A stretch of 11,086 nt of DNA from a virus. Its lineage: Duplodnaviria > Heunggongvirae > Uroviricota > Caudoviricetes. The notes beneath the pieces were generated by a model. That model worked only from the letters and a program-made list of their open reading frames with translations. It was not told where the DNA came from and ran no database searches. The stretch is from the IMG/VR virus record IMGVR_UViG_2585427794_000002, one strand, 5' to 3'. The position numbers and the translations under genes are program-made. Below, in pieces: positions 1-11,086 of this stretch. Positions within the stretch are counted from its first letter, which is position 1. Each line of letters opens with the position of its first letter.

Positions 1-2469
1 CAAGGTCCGGCAACTTCCGACTCCGGTATAGAAGTTAACCAGAATATAGCTGTCGCCAGAGCGGGTGACCTTATAAGCGCCTGATTCGGCATTCCAGGGA
101 ACGCCCCCATCCGCATCGGCATATGTATCCGTTGCCCTTCTGGCAAAAGCAGCCACATGCGCGGCGGTTAAAGTGATATCAGTAGAACCATCAAATGGAA
201 CACCGGATATTTTTCTTGCAGTCTGAAGTTTTGTAGCAGTTGCAGCATTACCAGTGGTGTTCTGATTACCCGTAGTGTTTACACCTGGAAGGTTAATATT
301 TGCAGAACCGTCGAAAACAACTCCACCGATAGATCTTGCCGTCTGCAATTTCGTGGCTGTACTTGCATTACCATTCAATGAACCAGTTAATCCACCTGTA
401 ACAGACAACGGACCTGAAACTGTTCCTCCGGTTGTTGGCAGTGCTCCAATATCTGATGGTGTAGGTTTCTGATGTGAGCTATACATCGTATAAACAACAC
501 CATAGGTAACGCTGGAAGGCTTACTCGCTGAATATGTTGGCGAGGTATAAACAGAAACTGTCGCATTTGCAGTACAATCCCAATGGATATTTACACGAGT
601 CGCATAATTGCCAATCTCAACGTAAATATCATATGTATCGCCGGATGTGTTGATCCAGGCGAAATTCGTTAATCCGACGGCTGTACGCTTCCACAAAGCC
701 CCGGTAATTCCTTTGGGGTTTCCATTGCCTGCTCGTAGAACCAGTTCTGAAATGCCTGCCTGATGTGGGGAACCGACGTTGTAACCAGCGCCACCAATCA
801 ATGCGATGTAAACGATGGAACTCGCTTGTGGCATGGTAACCGTAGCCAGTTTGAACCACCCAGCCCCGCCAGAGAAAGACATCGTTACTGAATTTAAAGT
901 ACCAATATCTTTCGGCGTTAATGTTATATCCGCAGTCAGTGCTTTTCCGTTAACTTTTCGGTTAGATGGCACCCTGCTATTCGCATTGTCATTGGCTGCT
1001 TTAACTGCTTTTGGCGTTGCGGCCAGCGATTCACTGGTGCTATCAACAGCACTGCTAAGTTTCACAACACCTTTAGTTGTAAGGCTTGCGTCTTCCATCG
1101 CAACTGCACCGGCAATCTCTTCAGCACGATCAGCAGCAGCTTCCGCACGGGTCGCAGCGGATTCAGCAGCAGTTTTGCTCTGAGATGCTGCCGTCGCACT
1201 GCCTGCCGCCTCTGTTGCTTTCGTGGATGCCGTCGTGGCGCTGCCCTTCGCTGCTGACGCCTGTCTGGTCGCCTCATCTTTTGAAGCAGACGCAGATGAT
1301 GCCGATGACGCTGCCGAACTGGCGGACGATGCGGCTGCCGTTTTTGAGGATTCTGCACGGGTTTCCGACGCTTTCGCATTCGTTTCGGATGTCTTCGCTG
1401 CGGAAGCAGACCTCGCTGCTGCGCTGGCCTGTACAGCGGCTTCGCCAGCCTTCGTTGTGGCTGTTGAAGCGGACGATGCAGCACTTTCTGCCGATTTTCC
1501 GGCGGCGGTGGCACTGGCTGAGGCCTGCCCGGCACTTGTTGACGCGGCACTGGCAGACGACGCAGCCGCTGTTTTTGAGCCTGCCGCAGCTGAGGCACTC
1601 TGTCCCGCTGCCGTTTCAGAAGCCTTGGCGTTCGTCTCGGACGTTTTTGCCGCCTTCGCAGAATTTGCTGTCGCCGTTGCCGAGGAAGCTGCGCTGCTGG
1701 CGCTCGAGGCTGCGCTCGTTTCTGATGATTTTGCCGCCTCTTTTGAAGCCGACGCATCCCGGGCTGAGGTGGCAGCTTCTGACGCTTTCGTGGTCGCGGT
1801 GGATGCTGAAGTGGCTGCTGATTGTTGTGACGCTGCCGCATTCGTTTCTGACGTTTTTGCCGCAGCGGCACTGGTGGCCGCCGCGCTTTTTGAGGACTCT
1901 GCAGCGGCAGCACTTTTTGATGCTTCAGTGGCCTTTGCTGATGCCGTTCCTGCGCTGGAAGACGCTGACTGAGCCGACGACGCGGCCTGTCCGGCTGACG
2001 TGCTGGCTGCGCGTGCTGAGCCTGCAGCATCAGTCGCATGGGTTGCCGCCTCACGGGCAGATGTGCTGGCATCACTGGCTGACTTCTTCGCGGCTGCCGT
2101 GTTCTGTGCCACTGCGGACGCGTTACGCGCCACCTCTTCCACCATCAGTTCAAAACGGCGCAGTGCCTCTGGCCGGACATCATCCTCCGTCATTGCACCG
2201 AGGAAATCATTCAGTGTGCCCGGCTTTGAGTCCTCATATACGGTGATAATCCCGGCGTGTGACGGCGGGAATCCCTCCACCAACAGACTGACGCTGTACT
2301 GACCATACTCGACGTCCATTGTGTAACGCCCGGCTTCATCCGGGTTTTCTGAGGCCACTGTGTTCACCACCACCGTGGTGCTGTTGCGCCTGGCCTTTAG
2401 CTGAATGGTGCAGTTTTGTATCGGCTTACCTGCGCCATCTTTCAGTACACCTGAAATCCGTACTGCCAT
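1..2469 (-). CDS. stf: Side tail fibre protein (Stf-like); partial, 3' end lies beyond the left window edge
   Basis: Hand translation of the minus-strand frame starting at ATG 2469..2467 is open for 823 codons to position 1. This frame is not in the ORF track because it has no in-window stop. N-terminus MAVRISGVLKDGAGKPIQNCTIQLKARRNSTTVVVN... closely matches the lambda Stf / Rac StfR N-terminus as I recall it. It is followed by a long Ala/Ser/Thr-rich low-complexity segment and distal tail-fibre repeats (GNASTATKLQTARSIGGVVFDGS...). A G-rich Shine-Dalgarno-like stretch (GGGGGGAAT) sits directly upstream of the ATG. Confidence 0.85.
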   Translation of the reverse strand, partial: MAVRISGVLKDGAGKPIQNCTIQLKARRNSTTVVVNTVASENPDEAGRYTMDVEYGQYSVSLLVEGFPPSHAGIITVYEDSKPGTLNDFLGAMTEDDVRPEALRRFELMVEEVARNASAVAQNTAAAKKSASDASTSAREAATHATDAAGSARAASTSAGQAASSAQSASSSAGTASAKATEASKSAAAAESSKSAAATSAAAAKTSETNAAASQQSAATSASTATTKASEAATSARDASASKEAAKSSETSAASSASSAASSATATANSAKAAKTSETNAKASETAAGQSASAAAGSKTAAASSASAASTSAGQASASATAAGKSAESAASSASTATTKAGEAAVQASAAARSASAAKTSETNAKASETRAESSKTAAASSASSAASSASSASASKDEATRQASAAKGSATTASTKATEAAGSATAASQSKTAAESAATRAEAAADRAEEIAGAVAMEDASLTTKGVVKLSSAVDSTSESLAATPKAVKAANDNANSRVPSNRKVNGKALTADITLTPKDIGTLNSVTMSFSGGAGWFKLATVTMPQASSIVYIALIGGAGYNVGSPHQAGISELVLRAGNGNPKGITGALWKRTAVGLTNFAWINTSGDTYDIYVEIGNYATRVNIHWDCTANATVSVYTSPTYSASKPSSVTYGVVYTMYSSHQKPTPSDIGALPTTGGTVSGPLSVTGGLTGSLNGNASTATKLQTARSIGGVVFDGSANINLPGVNTTGNQNTTGNAATATKLQTARKISGVPFDGSTDITLTAAHVAAFARRATDTYADADGGVPWNAESGAYKVTRSGDSYILVNFYTGVGSCRTL
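169..372 (-). repeat. Two tandem ~28-aa phage tail-fibre repeats inside stf (about 169..252 and 289..372)
   Basis: Encoded peptides GNASTATKLQTARSIGGVVFDGSANINL and GNAATATKLQTARKISGVPFDGSTDITL. The underlying DNA is a direct imperfect repeat (tgcattacc...ttgccgtctgcaa / tgcagcattacc...ttgcagtctgaag). Confidence 0.6.
1110..2130 (-). repeat. Low-complexity Ala/Ser/Thr-rich coding repeat region of stf with a recurring KTSETNA motif
   Basis: Near-identical DNA motifs gcattcgtttcggatgtcttcgc (1375..1397), gcgttcgtctcggacgtttttgc (1628..1650) and gcattcgtttctgacgtttttgc (1838..1860) each encode AKTSETNA in the stf frame. GC-rich codon-periodic repetition generates spurious long ORFs in other frames on both strands. 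Confidence 0.65.
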
Positions 2470-2480
2470 ATTCCCCCCAC

Positions 2481-2507
2481 AAAAAAGCCCGCCTGAACCG
2501 GCGGGCT
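2481..2507 (-). terminator. Rho-independent terminator downstream of lom
   Basis: Minus-strand transcript reads GCCCGCC-GGUUCA-GGCGGGC followed by UUUUUUG. It lies between the lom stop (2534) and the stf start (2469). Confidence 0.6.
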
Positions 2508-2533
2508 GTCATAACACTGTGTTACCTGGCTAA

Positions 2534-3133
2534 TCAGAATTTATAACCGACACCAACGATGAAACTGTTGGTACGCCAGTCACCGCTGCCGGAGCCTTCA
2601 TAAGCGACGTCAACGGCCACGGATTCGGTCGGGTTAAACTGCACGCCAGCTCCCCACGCCAGAGACGTGTTGCTGTGGCGACCGTCATCACTTCCGGTCA
2701 GCACATCGTGCGTTTTCCCCTTGTTGTCAGTTACGCGGATATAATCCCCGGAGAAAGTCGACACACGGCTGTAAGCCATACCCGCCATCGCATACGCGCT
2801 GAACCATTCATTCACGCGCACAGACGGCCCCGCCATCACGCTGAACCAGCGATTACGCACGGAATCCTCATGCCAGCGGGTATCGCTGTAATGCGTTTTT
2901 TGCTCATCTTCAGCGTTGGCATAACTGAATGACGTAATCAGCCCCAGCGTGTCCGTAAACTCATAACGGTATTTCACGTTAATCCCGTTCAGATTTTCGC
3001 TGCCGGGAGCGTTCGTACGGGCATGAAGATACCCTGCGCTCAGTGTGGCCTGCTGCTCAGACGCCCATGCAGGCGCACCGGATACGGCCAGACAGATGGC
3101 TGCGGACAAAATGGCTGCACAAACTTTACGCAT
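2534..3133 (-). CDS. lom: Lom-like outer membrane protein (Ail/Lom/PagC family beta-barrel)
   Basis: 199-aa ORF with a signal peptide (MRKVCAAILSAAICLAVSGAPAWA) and C-terminal ...YEGSGSGDWRTNSFIVGVGYKF matching my recollection of lambda Lom. Position immediately after J matches lambda gene order. RBS GAGAGG lies upstream of the ATG. Confidence 0.9.
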   Translation of the reverse strand: MRKVCAAILSAAICLAVSGAPAWASEQQATLSAGYLHARTNAPGSENLNGINVKYRYEFTDTLGLITSFSYANAEDEQKTHYSDTRWHEDSVRNRWFSVMAGPSVRVNEWFSAYAMAGMAYSRVSTFSGDYIRVTDNKGKTHDVLTGSDDGRHSNTSLAWGAGVQFNPTESVAVDVAYEGSGSGDWRTNSFIVGVGYKF

Positions 3134-3157
3134 AATTACCTCTCGCTTTTCTGCAAT

Positions 3158-3181
3158 AAAAAAGGCGCCATTTCTGGCGCC
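3158..3181 (-). terminator. Rho-independent terminator-like hairpin between J and lom
   Basis: Minus-strand transcript reads GGCGCC-AGAAAU-GGCGCC followed by UUUUUUAUUG. It sits 20 nt past the J stop and about 25 nt before the lom start. Confidence 0.55.
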
Positions 3182-3200
3182 CGTATATGGGTTATAAAAT

Positions 3201-6200
3201 TCAGCTGATACTGATGCCTGCGGTGGCTTTCTTCATCACCACAACCAGCAAATCGCTGATACTTGCTGTGGGATACCAGTCATTTACCAGCCATGCTGAC
3301 ACCGAAAACTCCAGCGTCATGTGGCCGTGACCAGCTGGCATATCAATAACACCACTGTAAATCAGCGTATTATCCAGCGCGGTACGGTTATAAATTTCAG
3401 CACCATTTTTCTTCACTATCAGGCGGCATGAGGAGTAAATATCAGTATGCTCTCTCTCATGTTTAGCACCGCTGAATGCCACCGCCGGAATAACAATCTG
3501 CCGGTCAAACGGCTGATCGTCATAAATCCTGACGGTAATGGTCCCTGATGGCCACCGCTCCGGTGCCCGGGAGTCCCGCGGGAAAGCCTTACCCACTGTT
3601 TTGACAATATCGCCTTCAATCTGGTTGGCTGACAGTTTCCCTTTAATCTGACAGTTCTCATTTATCGTAACGTTGTTGAGCGTCCCGGCGTTCGCATTCA
3701 CACTGCCACTGATATCTGCATTTTTAGCGGTCAGCTTTCCGTCCGGTGTCATGGAAAATGCAGGAGGATTACCGCCGCTGGTAATGGTCGGAGCCGTCAG
3801 GCGTTTCAGGAACACGTCGTTCATGAATATCTGATCGCCCTGACCAACAAACATCGGCTTTGTGTTGCCATTCGCAGGATTAATCATCGCAATCCGATCA
3901 GCAGCCAGAAGCACCTGACTCTGCATACCTGCTGGCGTATTCTCAATACCGGCTCCGATACCCGCAATATAAAGGCGTCCGTCCTTCATCTGCTGCAGTT
4001 TCACGGCCCACATGCTGTTCAGGTTATTATTTGTATCAACCTGAACTTTCTGTATCTGCTGGATTGCCGCGCTCTGATTTTCCAGTTTTTTATTGACGGT
4101 CTGCGTGATTTCATTGCTGACATTCGTAATGGACGTCCTGATTTCAGCCAGGTCAGGCGCAAGCTGACCGTTATCAATCTGCGTCCACAGCTCCTGGGCC
4201 AGATGTGTTTTCCCGATTTCTCCTTTGAAAAAATCCAGGTAGCCTTCCGCATCATCGCTCGCCCGACCGACAGCCTCCACGAATGCCGATTTGCCGACTG
4301 TGTTCACACTGCGAACGTAAAAATAATAATCATGGCCCGGCTTAATATTGATACTGGCGGCTATCCAGTACAGCGCCGTACCAAGATAGCGGGCTGTGGT
4401 TTCAACCTGCCTGATATCCGCAATCCGCGTTTCCGAGAACCAGAACTCAAACTGTACCGTCGGATCATAAACCGCAAGATGCGGCGTGGCAGTTATCTGA
4501 AAATAGCCCGGCGTCAGCTCAATCCGCGACGGCGCTGCCGGGGCGGCAATCCGGAACGATACCGACGTCGGATCGCCCTGCTGTCCCCACGCATTTACCG
4601 CCCGGACCGTCAGCATGTAACGCCCCAGCGCCAGCTGCCTGAAGCGGTATGTGGTTTCCGTCGTCCGGGCCGTGCTGACCAGCCGCTCACTGCCGTCATC
4701 CGCTGTTACGGTCAGACGGAGCAGGAAGCTCACACCCTTCACCACCTTCGGCGTGTCCCAGCGCGCCAGCACCTGATATTCCCCGCTGTCTGCGGTGACT
4801 TCGGCGGTCAGGTGCTGCACCGCTGGCGGCGTGACACCATTCACCGTGCCGCTCTGGTCACCGTCAAAGTGCGCCCCGTTATCCACGATGGCTTCTTTTT
4901 CCGGTACATGCTGCACGGCGGTGATGGCATACGTGCCGTCGTCGTTCTCACGGATACTCACGCAGCGGAACAGGCGCTGGCGCAGCGTCGGCAGCTTCAG
5001 CCCCCACACGCTGTATTCAGCAACACCGTCAGGAACACGGCTCACTTTCACCTTCACGCCGTCGGTGACGGACTGAACCTCCACGCTGACCGGATTGCCA
5101 CTTCCGTCAACCAGGCTTATCAGCGTGGTACCGGAGGATGGCAGCGTGATTTCACGGTCGAGCGTCAGCGTCCGGGTCTGGCTGTTTACCGCCAGCACGC
5201 GCCCGCCGATGCTGATACCCGCATAGTCATCATCACAGATTTCAATGACATCGCCCGGCACATGGCGAAGCCCTTCTGCGCCCACGCTGAAGTCCACAGT
5301 CTGCGTTTCCAGCAGTTCTGTTTTAATCAGCCACAGCCCGGCGCGGTGTGCCTGCCCCCGGCTGGTACAGCCAAAAGCATCCATTTTCGTGACGTTACGA
5401 CCGTAACGGAGAATGGCCTGCGTATCTTCAACAAGCTCTGTCGCCGTCTCCCAGCCGTTATTCGGGTCAATCCAGTTCACCTCAACGGCATTATGGCGGT
5501 CCTTCAGGGCGCTGAAGCTGTAGCGGAACGGCGCACCATCATCCGGCATCACCACATTACTGCGGTTATAGGTCCACACCTTATCCGACGGTCGGTCCTG
5601 CACGAACGTCAGCGTCTGCCCGTTCCATACCGGCATACAGCGCATCGCAGAGCAGAAATCACTGAGCACATCCCACGCCTTGCGCTGTGTGGTCAGGTAC
5701 GCATTACAGGTGATGCGCGGCTCCGTGCCGCCAAAACCGTCCGGCACCGACTGATCGCAATGCTGGCCGATGACATACAGCGCCCATTTGTCCACATCCG
5801 CCGCACCAAGACGTTTCCCCATGCCGTAGCGCGGATGGGTCAGCATATCCCACAGACACCAGGCCATGTTGTTGCTGTATGCTGGCTTAAACGTTCCGTC
5901 CCAGATACCGCTGTATTGCCGCGTCTGCGGGTTATAGTTCGACGGCACCTGCAGAATACGCCCGCGCAGATGATAATTACGGCTCACCTGCTGGCTGCCG
6001 AACTGCTCCGAGTCCACCTGCACGCCGACCAGTGCCGTGTTCGGGTAGCCCTGTTTCACATCGATGATTTCGGTGTATGACGACCAGAGCGTTTTGTTCT
6101 GCAGCTGGTCTGTGGTGCTGTCCGGCGTCATCCTGCGCATCCGGATATTAAACGGGCGCGGCGGCAGGTTATCCACCACCACCGAGGCCAGATACTGCGA

Positions 6201-6680
6201 GGTGGTTTTGCCCTTAATGGTGATGTCTTTTTCCGTCACCCAGCCACCGTTACGCTGTATCTGAACCAGCAGGCGGACTTCCGACGGATTCCGGTCCCCC
6301 TTTGAGGTGGTTTCCACCAGTGCCTGCACACCGAAGGTAAAGCGCAGACGGTCGATGTTTGCCGACGTGATGGTCCGGGTGATCGGCGTGTCATATTTCA
6401 CTTCCGTACCCAGCACCGTCTCGGAGCCGGAGGATTCAAATCCCTCCGGCGGTGTCTGCTCCTGCTCACCTGCCCGGAACACCACCGTGACACCGGATAT
6501 ATTGGTATTCCCCTCACTGTCCAGCACCGGCGTACTGTTCAGCAGCACGCTTTTTAATCCGTCCACCGGACCTTCAATCGGCCCTTCGCTGATGGCATCA
6601 ATCGCACTCAACAGCTGCGTGGATTTCAGGTTATCTTTCGCTTCGCGCGGGGTATGCCCCTTACTGCTGCCTTTACCCAT
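3201..6680 (-). CDS. J: Tail tip / host specificity protein J (central tail fibre)
   Basis: 1159-aa ORF. N-terminal two-thirds ([45 protein letters not shown]...) is near-identical to lambda J as I recall it. Size and position (60 bp after I, followed by lom) match lambda. RBS GGAG lies upstream. Confidence 0.95.
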
Positions 6681-6740: not shown

Positions 6741-7382
6741 TCAGCGACCAATCACCACAACCTGACCACCGTCCCCTTCGTCTGCCGTGCTGATCTCCTG
6801 AGAAACCACCCGCGACCCCACACGCATTTCACCGTACAGAACAGGCAGAACATTGCCCTGAGCAACCATGTTATCCAGTGAAGAAAAATAGGTATTCTGT
6901 TTGCCGTTATCCGTTGTCTGTGTGCGGGGGGTTTTGGGTTTAGGGGCCAGCATCTGTGCAACACCGCCAAGCGTCATACTGGCACCGAGAGAAAACAGCA
7001 GATTACTCGCCATAATTCCTCCCCCCGGCATCCATATAGCAACCGCCATAACAGCCGCCCCCAGCACAGCCTGAAACACACCGCCACTTTTGGCTCCTGC
7101 CAGACGCGGCACGATATGGATCACGGCACCATTTTCCAGCGGCTCATTAAGACGGGCAGACAATTCGGTTTCACCTGCATCACGCCCGGCAATGCGTACC
7201 TGGTACCAGCCGTCGCTCAGTTTCTGACGAAACGCCGGGAGCTGAGTGGCCAGCGCCCGGATGGCTTCGGCCCCCGTTTTCACACGAAGGTCGATGCGGC
7301 GGCCAAATCGTTGCAAATCCCCGTAAAGGCAGATGCGTGCCATGCCCGGTGACGCCAGAGGGAGTGTGTGCGTCGCTGCCAT
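6741..7382 (-). CDS. I: Tail tip assembly protein I
   Basis: 213-aa ORF (MAATHTLPLASPGMARICLYGDLQRF...; C-terminus ...VSQEISTADEGDGGQVVVIGR) matching lambda gpI as I recall it. Contains a hydrophobic Gly/Ala-rich segment. Overlaps the 3' end of K by 103 nt in a different frame, as in lambda. Confidence 0.9.
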   Translation of the reverse strand: MAATHTLPLASPGMARICLYGDLQRFGRRIDLRVKTGAEAIRALATQLPAFRQKLSDGWYQVRIAGRDAGETELSARLNEPLENGAVIHIVPRLAGAKSGGVFQAVLGAAVMAVAIWMPGGGIMASNLLFSLGASMTLGGVAQMLAPKPKTPRTQTTDNGKQNTYFSSLDNMVAQGNVLPVLYGEMRVGSRVVSQEISTADEGDGGQVVVIGR

Positions 7383-8023
7383 TTGTCGGTATACCTCTCT
7401 CGTTTGCTCAGTTGTTCAGGAATATGGTGCAGCAGCTCGCCGTCGCCGCAGTAAATAGCGGCATGATTCGGCACCGATGAACCAAAACAGCACAGCAGCA
7501 CATCGCCCGGCTGCGCCGCTGACAACGGCACCTGATACAGCCCTGTAGCCTCCAGATTATCCAGATAGAGATTCTGACCGTTACGCCACCAGTCATCCCC
7601 GCGATGAAAATCCGGCATCTCAATCCCCGCCAGATGGTAAGCATCCCGGAACAGCGTGTAACAGTCCGTCACCCCGTGCTCAAAGCGCCGCCCGGTGAGA
7701 TGCGGCACACAGCGGAATTTATGAATCTCACCCCGGCAGACCAGCCACCACGGCAAATCACTCTGTACCTGCAGCCGCCGGTCGGCCTCACTCAGCCAGG
7801 GCAGACCACCGGGGTGGCTGTGGACCAGCGCCACAATCTCTCCCTGCATTTCTGCACTCAGCCAGTCCTCCGGCGACATCCGGAAATACTCCTCCGGCTC
7901 ACCGGAGATATTCACGCAGGGAAAATATCTTTCCTCCTCCGGCGTTCTCACCACGAAGCCGCACGACTCCGCTGGCGCACATCGCCGGGCGTGCGCCAGA
8001 ATCGCTGATTCTGTCTCTGTCAT
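7280..8023 (-). CDS. K: Tail tip assembly protein K (JAMM/MPN domain plus NlpC/P60 domain)
   Basis: 247-aa ORF starting 5 nt after the L stop. JAMM-like motif HSHPGGLPWLSEAD (H-x-H-x7-S-x2-D). NlpC/P60-like Cys in GVTDCYTLF and His in VPNHAAIY. An alternative internal start at 7879 (Met49, preceded by GGAGGAG) would give a 199-aa product. Confidence 0.85.
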   Translation of the reverse strand: MTETESAILAHARRCAPAESCGFVVRTPEEERYFPCVNISGEPEEYFRMSPEDWLSAEMQGEIVALVHSHPGGLPWLSEADRRLQVQSDLPWWLVCRGEIHKFRCVPHLTGRRFEHGVTDCYTLFRDAYHLAGIEMPDFHRGDDWWRNGQNLYLDNLEATGLYQVPLSAAQPGDVLLCCFGSSVPNHAAIYCGDGELLHHIPEQLSKRERYTDKWQRRTHSLWRHRAWHASAFTGICNDLAAASTFV

Positions 8024-8028
8024 GGGAT

Positions 8029-8727
8029 TTACTGCGAAAGTTTGTTAATGGAAAGGAAGCTGCCAAAGTTGCCGACATTATTGCGAAACTTACAGCCACT
8101 CAGGCATTTGCTGCATTTATCCTTCGTGATATCGGACGTCGGCTGGTCATATTCATCCGCGACCGCCGGACCGCTATAACCGCACTCATCGCCGCGATAG
8201 GTCCAGGTGCAGGTGTTGGCCAGCATGATACGTCCCGGAAAAACAGCGCCATCCGTTTCAGTCGGCGTGGACAGTACAAAAGAGGCACTGACCGCGCTCA
8301 GTTCGCTGCACTGCTCGATGCGCCAGCGGCTGATCACCTCCTGCTCCGGATCGGCTTCGCTGTTTCCGTTGACGAAGTTCACCGCATCCAGAAAGCGGGC
8401 GTAAACCTTACGCCGGACCACCGTTCCGCCGACCAGACTCTGCAGATCTTCCGCCATCCCGGTGATCATGCCGTGCAGGTTAGAGACCGTCAGTGTCGGA
8501 CGGGCAGCACTGCCCTTGCCGTTCATCTCAAATCCACTCCCCTGAATGGGATAGGCCTGATACTGCCGACTCTGCCAGGTGACAGACTCACCTTTTTCGT
8601 TCTGCTCATTACAGAAAAAGTAGCGATCCCCGCCTACCTCGGTCAGGTCGATTTCCCAGAGCACCACGCTGGCCGACTGCTCCGCACGAATGCATTCATT
8701 CAGCGTTTCCTGTTGTATGTCCTGCAT
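8029..8727 (-). CDS. L: Minor tail protein L
   Basis: 232-aa ORF, the same length as lambda gpL. C-terminal cysteine cluster (CTWTYRGDECGYSG...CSKCLSGCKF). Start codon overlaps the M stop (TGATG). Confidence 0.9.
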   Translation of the reverse strand: MQDIQQETLNECIRAEQSASVVLWEIDLTEVGGDRYFFCNEQNEKGESVTWQSRQYQAYPIQGSGFEMNGKGSAARPTLTVSNLHGMITGMAEDLQSLVGGTVVRRKVYARFLDAVNFVNGNSEADPEQEVISRWRIEQCSELSAVSASFVLSTPTETDGAVFPGRIMLANTCTWTYRGDECGYSGPAVADEYDQPTSDITKDKCSKCLSGCKFRNNVGNFGSFLSINKLSQ

Positions 8728-9065
8728 CAGATCACCACTTCGTCAAACTGACACGAAAAATCGGTATAGGTGATATGTTCTGTCGCTGACCACGTTCGAC
8801 ACACCACTCTGATTTTTCTGTTAATACCCGGCGGGCGCCAAAAAAAAGATTTATAGCCTTCATGCCGGGCTAAAAATTTTTCAAATGAATCACGTTCATT
8901 CGCCTCAACTTTGAAATCACAGGTGAAAACGCGCAGAGAATGATTAAGTCCATTTGGACTTCGTTGCTCATAACCATCGCCAAATCTTACAGTTTTTATC
9001 GATGGTTTATTTTCTGTTTTCATTCCATCCTCTGGTAACCAGTGAAATTCTTCCGTATTAGCCAC
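8727..9065 (-). CDS. M: Minor tail protein M
   Basis: 112-aa ORF containing VRFGDGYEQRSPNGLN and ...KSFFWRPP..., resembling lambda gpM (VRFGDGYSQRAPAGLN ... KSFLWTPP). Start overlaps the H stop by 8 nt. Confidence 0.9.
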   Translation of the reverse strand: MANTEEFHWLPEDGMKTENKPSIKTVRFGDGYEQRSPNGLNHSLRVFTCDFKVEANERDSFEKFLARHEGYKSFFWRPPGINRKIRVVCRTWSATEHITYTDFSCQFDEVVI

Positions 9066-10822
9066 TTAATATTCCCCCATCACGTCGCATATTTAACAGA
9101 TTGCCCTGCACCCGCTGATCAACCATCCCCATAAGTGCTTTTATTGCCTGAGGGCCAATCTCTCCATTCTGGCCGTCATTTTGAATAGTGATTTGGTATA
9201 CAGGGGCATAGGTAATATCTCCGCCTCCATTACCACTTTTACTATTAATAGCTCTGACACCAAGAGAACCATCGGAAGTTCGTGTTAATGGCATAATGGC
9301 TTCCGGTCCAGCCTCACCAAAAACACCAGCCCCTTTTGCAAAAGCAAAAAATTGCGGGGAATCATAAATACCGTTCGAATACGTGCTCAATGACGGAGAC
9401 TCATAAACACCGCCCTTTGCATTCGGAATAAATTTACTAATAGCACTCCCGATAGTTCCTAAAATCCCCCCAGAAGAACTGTTACTAATGCTGTCGAAAA
9501 TCCCAGTAATTGAAGCCTTTAATGCCATTCGACTAAGATCCGAAATCACGGAAGTAGCGAAAGAACGAAAATTTGCCTTGCCTGTCGTGACAAAATCACC
9601 CAGCGCATCGGTCATCCCATCAAACATCTGAGTCGTGGTTGATTTTATCTGCTCACTGATATCCTTAGTGTCATCCAGCCAGTTATTGAATCCCTGGGAG
9701 GCACTACTAACCCAGTCTCCTGCCTGAATATCGAGCTGCTCGTTTTTCTGTCTGACAATTTCTTTTTCCCGTTCCAGAGCATCATTCAGAGCCTGCATTT
9801 TCTCTTGAAAAACATGATCTGACATTCCACGGGATTTATCTGCATAGTCACGTTCAAGTTGCAGACGCTGATTGTTATATCCATGTTCAATCCGCAGTAA
9901 TTCCTGCTGGCGTTGCTGATTTTTATCGCCAACCCCATAACCAGCAATCTGAATATCATACCCCTGCTGACGATTATCAATCGAAGCCTGCAATGAATCA
10001 CGCCATGCTGTTATTTCGGCGGATTCCTTGATTAGCCTGTTATTCTTTTCAATCGCAACATTTTTCTCCATCAACGCGGTTATTTCTTCCCGGTGTAAGA
10101 GAAGCGATTTCTGATCCTGGGTTAATTTCGATGATGGTCGTGACTCTAGGTCGGCAATCCGCTGACGCCACTTAACCAGTTCCTGTTCAGAGGAACTTAA
10201 TTTAACGGTCAACTCAGCTTGTGAACTTAGTAACGCATTCTGTTGATTCAGATGATCAATCATTCGTTGGGCTGCATCATCAGAATAACCTTTCGCCTTT
10301 GGTTGCTTTGGATCTTTATAACGCTCATTTATTTGAGCGATAAGATTATTATATTCTTCCTTTGAATACTGATTCTTTAGCTTTTCCAGTTTTGCAAGTT
10401 CACTAGCTCTCTGCTGCTCCCGGGTCTGATATTGTTTTGAAAAGGCATCTGCTCTCTGTCTGAGTTCAATTCCTTCCTGTTGTCGCTTGTTGTAATCGTT
10501 TATTGATGAATTTAGTACGTCCTGAGCAATTTTTTCTGCTTGAAGTACGCCCAATTGCTGCTTTAATCGTGCCAGCCTTTTATTTTGAGCTCCGCCATCT
10601 CCAATGCCACCTAACCCGAAAACTCCGGGTCGGGTATTTTTTTCTATTTCATCAATTTGACGGAGAACATCTGAGATTTTTTGATCAAGGGAGGCCTCAC
10701 GGCCAATATCCAGCATGGAATCCCATGCCCATTTTGCGGAGTCTGCGACAGCTTTCCATGCAGTCTCAAGATAACCAAGATTTTCTTTAATCTGGTTGGT
10801 GCGCTGGATCATTGAGGATGAG
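9058..10822 (-). pseudogene. H: Tail tape-measure protein H, 5'-truncated by IS1 insertion (C-terminal ~588 codons retained)
   Basis: The minus-strand ORF resembles the middle and C-terminal parts of lambda gpH (e.g. ENLGYLETAWKAVADSAKWAWDSMLDIGR vs lambda ENMGTLETWADRTARAFKSMWDAVLDIGR; C-terminus ...MRRDGGILSG vs lambda ...MRDGGLFSGGGR). The 5' end of the ORF-track ORF (MESLPSSS, TTG start) is encoded by the IS1 inverted repeat, so authentic H sequence begins only at 10822. Confidence 0.85.
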
Positions 10823-11086
10823 GGTAATGACTCCAACTTATTGATAGTGTTTTATGTTCAGATAATGCCCGATGACTTTGTCATGCAGCTCCACCGATTT
10901 TGAGAACGACAGCGACTTCCGTCCCAGCCGTGCCAGGTGCTGCCTCAGATTCAGGTTATGCCGCTCAATTCGCTGCGTATATCGCTTGCTGATTACGTGC
11001 AGCTTTCCCTTCAGGCGGGATTCATACAGCGGCCAGCCATCCGTCATCCATATCACCACGTCAAAGGGTGACAGCAGGCTCATAAG
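10823..11086 (-). mobile_element. IS1 insertion sequence, right end (partial; continues beyond the window)
   Basis: Sequence from 10823, GGTAATGACTCCAACTTATTGATAGTGTTTTATGTTCAG..., is the IS1 terminal inverted repeat and adjacent sequence as I recall it. The minus-strand ORF encodes the InsB C-terminus ...[18 protein letters not shown]. Confidence 0.95.
10838..11086 (-). CDS. insB: IS1 transposase InsB, C-terminal part (5' end outside the window)
   Basis: Translation [81 protein letters not shown] matches the IS1 InsB C-terminus as I recall it. The reading frame continues upstream past the window edge. Confidence 0.9.

Follow-up and report, generated by a model that had tools for sequence, protein, structure and literature searches.

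How is a gene for an outer-membrane protein expressed when it is embedded in the late tail operon of a lambdoid prophage, with a hairpin on either side of it and almost no space for a promoter of its own? The question is raised by the stretch of DNA analysed here (the window, 11,086 nt), in which the gene lom lies between the tail-tip gene J and the side tail fibre gene stf. The genes and hairpins of the window described below are on the minus strand. As a gene of lysogenic conversion, lambda lom is in the textbooks, and the feature is to that extent already known. A first-pass annotation, made from the letters of the window alone, had described lom as a moron-like cargo gene bracketed by terminators, and we analysed the gene, its two hairpins, the limits of the DNA that carries it, and the space available for a promoter.

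The window matches E. coli chromosomes at 99.6-99.7%, with at least 80% of its length covered in 400 genomes. In strain PK8241 the matching region adjoins tfaR, pinR, ydfK, uspF and ompN, which places it at the Rac prophage locus; judged by these matches, the host element is a Rac-type lambdoid prophage of E. coli. Prophages at the Rac locus carry lom annotated as "Ail/Lom family outer membrane beta-barrel protein", and lomR of K-12 is taken to be the corresponding Rac gene, split by IS5 in a prophage from which J is lost. The tail genes of the window are H (tape-measure, 9058-10836), M (8727-9065), L (8029-8727), K (7280-8023), I (6741-7343 according to the PK8241 annotation; in the window the frame stays open to 7382) and J (3201-6680), which encodes a tail-tip/host-specificity protein of 1159 aa and lies directly upstream of the lom cassette. 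J has seven J-specific Pfam domains, including Phage-tail_3, Ig_J, FNIII-A_GpJ, Ig_J_second, Phage_Tail_Tip and Ig_GpJ_C, and matches the solved lambda J with E = 0. Downstream of lom, stf (1..2469) is open for its first 823 codons and leaves the window at the edge; its N-terminus matches Pfam phage_tail_N ("prophage tail fibre N-terminal", 3.3e-68) and the tail fibre N-terminus in PDB 9e7m. H is cut by IS1 in the window genome, 7.7 kb upstream of lom; unlike H, both J and lom are intact.

The lom gene (2534-3133, 199 codons plus stop) encodes the precursor of an eight-stranded outer-membrane beta-barrel of the Ail/Lom family, as judged from Pfam, PDB relatives and an alignment of alleles. All 199 residues of the product align to positions 1-199 of the Pfam profile Ail_Lom (PF06316; E 5.7e-125), at 415.1 bits against a curated cut-off of 23. 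The signal peptide and C-terminal Ail/Lom-type signature claimed by the first-pass annotation are both present, and we read them by eye from the translation: codons 1-24 (3062-3133) encode MRKVCAAILSAAICLAVSGAPAWA|SEQQ, with MRK, a hydrophobic core and AWA|S at the cleavage site, and the protein ends in FIVGVGYKF, an aromatic beta-signal with a terminal F. The nearest solved structure is that of lambda Lom (PDB 9wso, 4.6e-48), which was not matched by J or Stf queries, followed at about 1e-19 by Ail (3qra, 1.4e-19), OmpX (1qj8 group, 3.6e-19) and their relatives. By sequence, the lom product thus belongs to the same fold family as Yersinia Ail, E. coli OmpX and Salmonella PagC/Rck (PF06316/PF13505), and among Lom alleles variable stretches alternate with conserved blocks. 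Ail, OmpX and PagC/Rck are encoded by stand-alone genes with their own regulated promoters; lom, unlike them, is embedded in a phage late operon. It is preceded by a 21-nt leader, GCAGAAAAGCGAGAGGTAATT (3134..3154), which is conserved across loci and contains the Shine-Dalgarno sequence GAGAGG, a predicted strong ribosome-binding site.

Two hairpins fill the only two intergenic gaps around lom, at the positions that had been claimed for them (3158..3181 and 2481..2507). The upstream element, T1 (3155..3182), reads GGGCGCCAGAAATGGCGCCT on the coding strand at 3182-3163, followed by TTTTTATT; it has 8 pairs (6 G-C), a 4-nt GAAA loop and a run of six T, such that the stem passes into T6-A-TT at 3163-3155. 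The downstream element, T2 (2481..2507), reads AGCCCGCCGGTTCAGGCGGGCT at 2507-2486 and then TTTTTG; its stem, AGCCCGCC...GGCGGGCT, has 8 pairs (7 G-C), a 6-nt loop and a T6 run at 2486-2481. The T-run of T1 ends at 3158 and the ATT after it at 3155, and lom begins with its ATG at 3133, in keeping with the earlier estimate that about 25 nt separate the upstream terminator from lom. Neither element has a T-run on the opposite strand, so that the anatomy of an intrinsic terminator is found on the coding strand only. T1 folds at -15.7 kcal/mol, compared with -7.9 +/- 2.4 in shuffled sequences (z -3.2; 0 of 200 as good). The 64-nt segment around T2 is unexceptional as a whole (z -1.3), and its centroid structure is the same 8-bp hairpin. 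Under lax criteria there is no excess of terminators in the window (13 sites vs 11.2 +/- 4.0 expected by chance). Under strict criteria (a T-run and no fewer than 8 pairs, 6 or more of them G-C), a scan of the 11-kb window returns exactly T1 and T2 vs 0.095 sites expected, and two or more strict sites occur in 1.5% of 200 dinucleotide shuffles. T1 also covaries across loci: six of its eight pairs are altered on both sides and pairing holds in 97.9% of cells, a score reached in 0 of 500 shuffles, with slid controls at 38-60%. Its compensatory stems include GCGCC/GGCGC, GCACC/GGTGC and GCGTC/GACGC, and wholly different stems are found in lambda, Citrobacter and another allele group. T2 shows single wobble-compatible changes only, because the sequences are too similar. 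We therefore regard T1 and T2 as predicted intrinsic terminators. An Rfam scan of the window gave sub-threshold matches only, which we set aside: fragments of isrG antisense to stf, and Trp_leader over T2, a match owed to the shape of the terminator that scored 27 bits where 41 are required.

Relatives without lom define the limits of the unit that carries it. A search with the end of J fused to the start of stf found the two genes directly adjacent in phages 3W, 1H12 and ev017, whose sequences we aligned, and in Tritos; phages 2E9 and ev203 have the same short J-stf span in the search. The empty spacer measures 58-60 nt from the J stop to the stf ATG and reads GGGCGCCAGAAATGGCGCC-TTTTTTATT, then TGTGGAGTGAATATG (stf). 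In 3W, 1H12 and ev017 the hairpin in this spacer is the T1 of the window. TGTGGAGTGAATATG comes after T1 in lom-less phages and after the T-run of T2 in lom-bearing ones. The J-stf join in lom-less phages thus runs through the T1 of the window, and the unit that is present or absent is a cassette of 673 nt (2482..3154), which runs from the 21-nt leader, GAGAGG included, through lom and a further 26 nt to the T2 hairpin and its T-run. The empty junction, ...TTTTTTATT|TGTGGAG..., is identical in 86 IMG/VR contigs, and in 85 of these lom is absent from the 3 kb around it; the filled 5' junction is found exactly in at least 120 contigs. The same variants of the J 3' end occur in both the filled and the empty state.

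These empty sites and the strict scan together uphold the description of lom as a facultative gene bracketed by terminators between J and stf, with one correction. Both flanking hairpins are real, and T2 lies within the cassette; T1, in contrast, stays in place in phages that lack lom, so the upstream terminator is not specific to the cargo. Since T1 is present with or without lom, a terminator always lies directly 5' of the stf ribosome-binding region (GTGGGGGGAAT, 2470..2480): this is T2 in lom-bearing phages, where the region directly follows the T-run of T2, and T1 in lom-less phages, where it bears the same relation to a terminator. All empty sites carry a window-type T1 and may therefore descend from one deletion and not represent the ancestral state. 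The single junction shared by the 86 contigs, taken with that T1, slightly favours a single deletion that would later have spread by recombination.

To see how far this arrangement extends, we collected lom loci from genomes and IMG/VR. Among 212 unique loci, 207 have a J-like ORF upstream and 202 a short J-lom gap, with 61-71 nt between the J stop and the lom ATG. A hairpin with a T-run is found in this gap in 200 of the 202, and between lom and stf in 166 of the 168 unique loci where stf comes after lom. About 200 unique loci, that of lambda among them, thus share the layout J - T1 - lom - T2 - stf, across 7 lom allele clusters and many clusters of the J C-terminal (receptor-binding) domain. 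A deep split divides the lom clusters into one group of 199 aa and another of 206-207 aa, with about 45% identity between the two. Where different lom alleles stand beside one J cluster, each brings its own J-lom spacer in full, along with T1, which makes T1 a shared boundary and not purely a part of the backbone. The T1 loop occurs in both orientations between palindromic GGCGCC arms.

Lambda itself has lom in the same position, order (J - lom - stf/orf-401), spacing and Pfam family as the window: J is followed by a hairpin with a T-run, about 29 nt with the Shine-Dalgarno sequence GAGAGG, lom, a near-identical T2 and the stf start. The two lom products are about 45% identical (206 vs 199 aa), the T1 stem of lambda is unrelated to that of the window, and the J receptor-binding domains differ. 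In Gifsy-2-type Salmonella prophages the same J/stf junction holds other cargo. The slot of STM1049.2n contains an unrelated 80-aa ORF with a signal-peptide-like N-terminus, about 38 nt from the J stop to its ATG and with its own terminator directly 5' of the stf ribosome-binding site, and Gifsy-2-type empty sites consist of J, a single hairpin with T7, and stf, the hairpin sequences being different from those of the window. Taken together, the filled and empty Gifsy-2-type sites suggest that the terminator directly before stf is constant and the cargo varies.

We searched for a promoter that could serve lom. A consensus scan found no sigma-70-like site on the coding strand in 2000-3800, and across the whole window such sites are fewer than expected by chance. 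A weight matrix run over the 400 nt before lom in four allele groups (those of the window and lambda and two others) gave background-level scores only, at unrelated positions; the matrix frequencies were approximate, and the scores are accordingly rough. Both scans address sigma-70-like sites, and non-consensus or activator-dependent promoters may escape scans of this kind. Within the cassette itself, the leader offers 21 nt 5' of the ATG, which is too short for a promoter. PhoP-box-like repeats and extended -10 motifs, noted by eye in the spacer, proved to be weak half-sites, which lom-less phages share. In lambda, T1 is followed by a -10-like TATTAT; the window has none. In the literature that we searched, we found no mapped promoter or transcription start for lom. 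The first-pass annotation had also proposed that the GC content and codon usage of lom be compared with those of the flanking tail genes; this test for foreign composition was negative. GC and GC3 are 0.553 and 0.61 for lom, 0.561 and 0.663 for J, and 0.558 and 0.625 for the stf N-terminus, and the relative synonymous codon usage of lom correlates with that of the pooled tail genes at 0.77, similar to L, K and I.

Based on these observations, we consider it probable that lom is a promoter-less, self-terminated cassette, expressed mainly by Q-antiterminated late read-through, with T1 and T2 acting as insulators in the repressed prophage. During lytic growth, Q-modified RNA polymerase would pass T1 and T2, and lom would be a late product like its neighbours J and stf. 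As long as the prophage is repressed, T1 would stop un-antiterminated transcription arriving from the tail genes, and T2 would keep any lom transcript out of stf-tfa. Expression of lom in the prophage state, which is documented for lambda, would then have to come from leak-through at T1, or from a weak or activator-dependent non-consensus promoter at the J 3' end or T1. Because of the IS1 in H upstream, late read-through may be impaired in the window genome.

The literature on lysogens speaks against a promoter-less cassette. Lambda lom has repeatedly been reported as one of the few genes expressed from the repressed prophage, as the first-pass annotation noted, and it is listed among morons (PMC1151598, PMC7067206, PMC3594210). 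In phi24B, lom RNA is made constitutively and independently of induction (PMC3342100, PMC4651098), which argues for some promoter close to lom. Lom could be a classic moron, that is, an autonomous gene driven by a constitutive promoter that overlaps T1 or the end of J, insulated by both terminators, whose expression in the prophage benefits the host through adhesion or serum resistance. The flanking terminators and the optional presence of the gene are as this reading expects, and in lambda the TATTAT lies about 20 nt before the ATG. We nevertheless find it rather unlikely. In the window and three other allele groups no sigma-70-like site rises above background or is conserved in position, the cassette has only its 21 nt 5' of the ATG, and a transcript that started upstream of T1 would meet a strong terminator. 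T1 is also there without lom, the composition of lom is not deviant, and one array study of a lambda lysogen did not detect lom and remarked that little is known of its promoter (PMC2147009). Measured against the Juhala/Hendrix definition as summarised in PMC3594210, the moron-like character of lom stands as regards optional presence and an own terminator, T2; its composition, in contrast, is like that of its neighbours, and the sequence scans found no promoter of its own. The comparison with established morons is similar. Like lom, the HK97/HK022 morons (e.g. HK97 gene 15) and lambda bor are extra genes between genes that are adjacent in relatives, with an own terminator, an envelope protein as product and a proposed benefit to the lysogen (PMC3594210). 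Lom is unlike them in that no promoter of its own was found, its composition is not deviant, and T1 is shared with the lom-less state. The TATTAT/TATAAA just past the T1 of lambda, a better -10-like sequence with no equivalent in the window allele, also counts against the promoter-less reading.

A second alternative concerns function. Lom made late might alter the cell surface and stop unproductive adsorption of progeny or related phages to infected cells and debris, lysogenic conversion being secondary. The apparent lack of a promoter would suit such a role, as would the place of lom in a late operon that depends on Q, with a receptor-binding gene (J, stf) on either side. Over-expressed lambda Lom protects strongly against lambda-vir and not against T7, Lom at prophage levels gives no protection, and a late anti-adsorption role has been proposed on this basis (PMC12366544). 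According to the passages that cite Liu 2013 in PMC9836094 and PMC12366544, Lom expression climbs strongly late in infection, and the former speaks of strong expression in the lytic cycle. On the other side, lom is dispensable for plaque formation (PMC10695390) and often missing from otherwise similar phages, and the same (window-type) lom allele stands beside at least 7 J C-terminal clusters, while one J cluster is combined with three lom clusters. We saw no matching of lom and J specificities across the lom loci, a sample biased by how the loci were collected. A mainly lytic function of Lom is thus compatible with the architecture of the locus and unsupported by lom/J allele matching, and we regard it as possible but doubtful. 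The hairpins, finally, might not be terminators at all. They could serve to stabilise or process RNA 3' ends and so adjust the relative levels of J, lom and stf message, or they could be mere scars of the recombination that moves the cassette: Q antitermination would be expected to overcome any terminator in this operon, the cassette limits coincide with T-runs, and the T1 loop found in both orientations within GGCGCC arms hints at rearrangement at the DNA level. This we consider very improbable. Both elements have every part of a canonical intrinsic terminator, with an 8-bp stem rich in G+C, a short loop and U6, and have them on the coding strand alone. The pairing of T1 is preserved through compensatory changes, and in loci of lambda, Citrobacter and Salmonella hairpins of unrelated sequence, always with a T-run, take its place.

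The promoter-less cassette can be placed in a wider, more tentative frame. The J/stf junction of lambdoid tail operons might be a conserved, terminator-bounded cargo slot for promoter-less envelope genes (lom in Escherichia, the gene of a small secreted protein in Gifsy-2-type Salmonella prophages), each with its own 3' terminator, such that stf always has a terminator directly 5' of it, and expressed chiefly by Q antitermination, with Lom primarily a late-lytic surface modifier; we would not put this above a working suggestion that is more apt to fail than to hold. It would give Lom an anti-readsorption or exclusion role, as in PMC12366544, and not that of a promoter-driven lysogenic-conversion moron.

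In sum, lom is here a well-known gene in a well-known place, and the limits of the cassette and the missing promoter refine this picture only modestly. Comparison with relatives shows an optional insert of 673 bases with its own terminator and no recognisable promoter, which makes the feature ordinary, and genome annotation is unchanged, since hundreds of E. coli genomes already have the gene under its correct name. The refinement matters for expression. Lom is called a textbook case of a gene expressed in the lysogen, yet its promoter has not been pinned down (PMC2147009). The cassette limits and the lack of space for a promoter sharpen the question to a choice between leak-through at T1 and an atypical promoter that overlaps T1 or the J end, and they also bear on the recent proposal that Lom blocks adsorption late in infection (PMC12366544).

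In some loci the surroundings of lom, the gene for an Ail/Lom outer-membrane protein, depart from the usual order of J, terminator, lom, terminator and stf. A minority of loci, about 30 in all (including L059, L095, L102, L076 and L080), lack both stf and T2, the terminator-like hairpin and T-run after lom, but keep the same lom allele and, upstream of it, the same J and the same T1, the corresponding hairpin after J. The place of T2 and stf is taken there by unrelated DNA. It can form a long, imperfectly paired hairpin (ACGCAGGTTCATCC...GGGGTGAACTGCGT) that has no T-run, and the C-terminus of Lom becomes ...GYRF. A single contig, L193, carries an empty J-stf junction, one without lom, together with a lom homologue (84% identity) approximately 1.8-2.4 kb upstream of that junction, in the place where J is expected. 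We interpret this arrangement as a rearrangement. Several lom copies (L011, L014 and L019, Shigella flexneri; lom allele cluster cl3) are approximately 90% identical in DNA yet give low or partial protein matches; such copies, from Shigella and from a single IMG/VR contig, are probably frameshifted pseudogenes. In Salmonella, the same J/stf slot in Gifsy-2 (L109, 2167-2500) holds an 80-aa ORF with its own terminator, and the N-terminus of this ORF resembles a signal peptide (MTMSRVISLAAGLSLSVLFSTAAVA...). The slot is empty in related loci, with a single hairpin of different sequence (loci observed for this slot: L109 and L392-L431).

The two non-coding stretches that flank lom also vary. The loop of T1 (window equivalent 3164-3181) is inverted in seven loci, including L038, L045 and L054, which have GGCGCC-ATTTCT-GGCGCC instead of the usual GGCGCC-AGAAAT-GGCGCC. 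Because its arms are the palindrome GGCGCC, the entire hairpin appears to have been flipped at the DNA level with its stem unchanged. On the other side of lom, after the T-run of the terminator and ahead of the stf ATG, a homopolymer of variable length forms the stf ribosome-binding region: it is G6 in the window (2473-2478) and G11 in L048, and most relatives have GGGGTG or GGAGTG at this position. The variable length of the G-run could alter stf translation. Within stf itself, codons ~120-500 (~970-2110) form a low-complexity stretch of ~380 aa in which Ala, Ser and Thr are abundant, with a GC2 of 0.77. We note that spurious long ORFs in other frames and strands overlap this stretch (1086-2246 on the plus strand and 1062-2075 on the minus strand), and that sub-threshold Rfam matches to isrG also lie within it, on the plus strand.

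The solved structure nearest to the C-terminal domain of the window J (3201-3800) is the chain 'A8 gpJ 713' (9wca/9wcb, E 4e-189), with lambda J (8xcj, 1e-167) ranking behind it for the receptor-binding region; lambda Lom is present in a recent entry, 9wso. An antisense open frame of 625 aa runs through J (4203-6080, plus strand), with no evidence of being a gene; it is likely a by-product of J codon bias.

GC and GC3 change abruptly at ~8727, the M/L boundary, from 0.41-0.435 and 0.35-0.38, respectively, in H and M to 0.56-0.59 and 0.56-0.67 in L, K, I and J, a discontinuity that far exceeds anything at lom. On this compositional evidence, the M/L boundary looks like a mosaic joint within the tail operon. 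Farther upstream, an IS1 element cuts the tape-measure gene H of the window; close relatives carry an intact H of 3234 nt. The inverted repeat GGTAATGACTCCAACTTATTGATAG marks the start of the IS1 element at 10824, and the IS1 region (10824-11086) includes an ORF for the C-terminal part of InsB (10838-11083, minus strand). With H interrupted in this way, the prophage copy in the window is predicted to be tail-defective, and its late operon is broken 7.7 kb upstream of lom.
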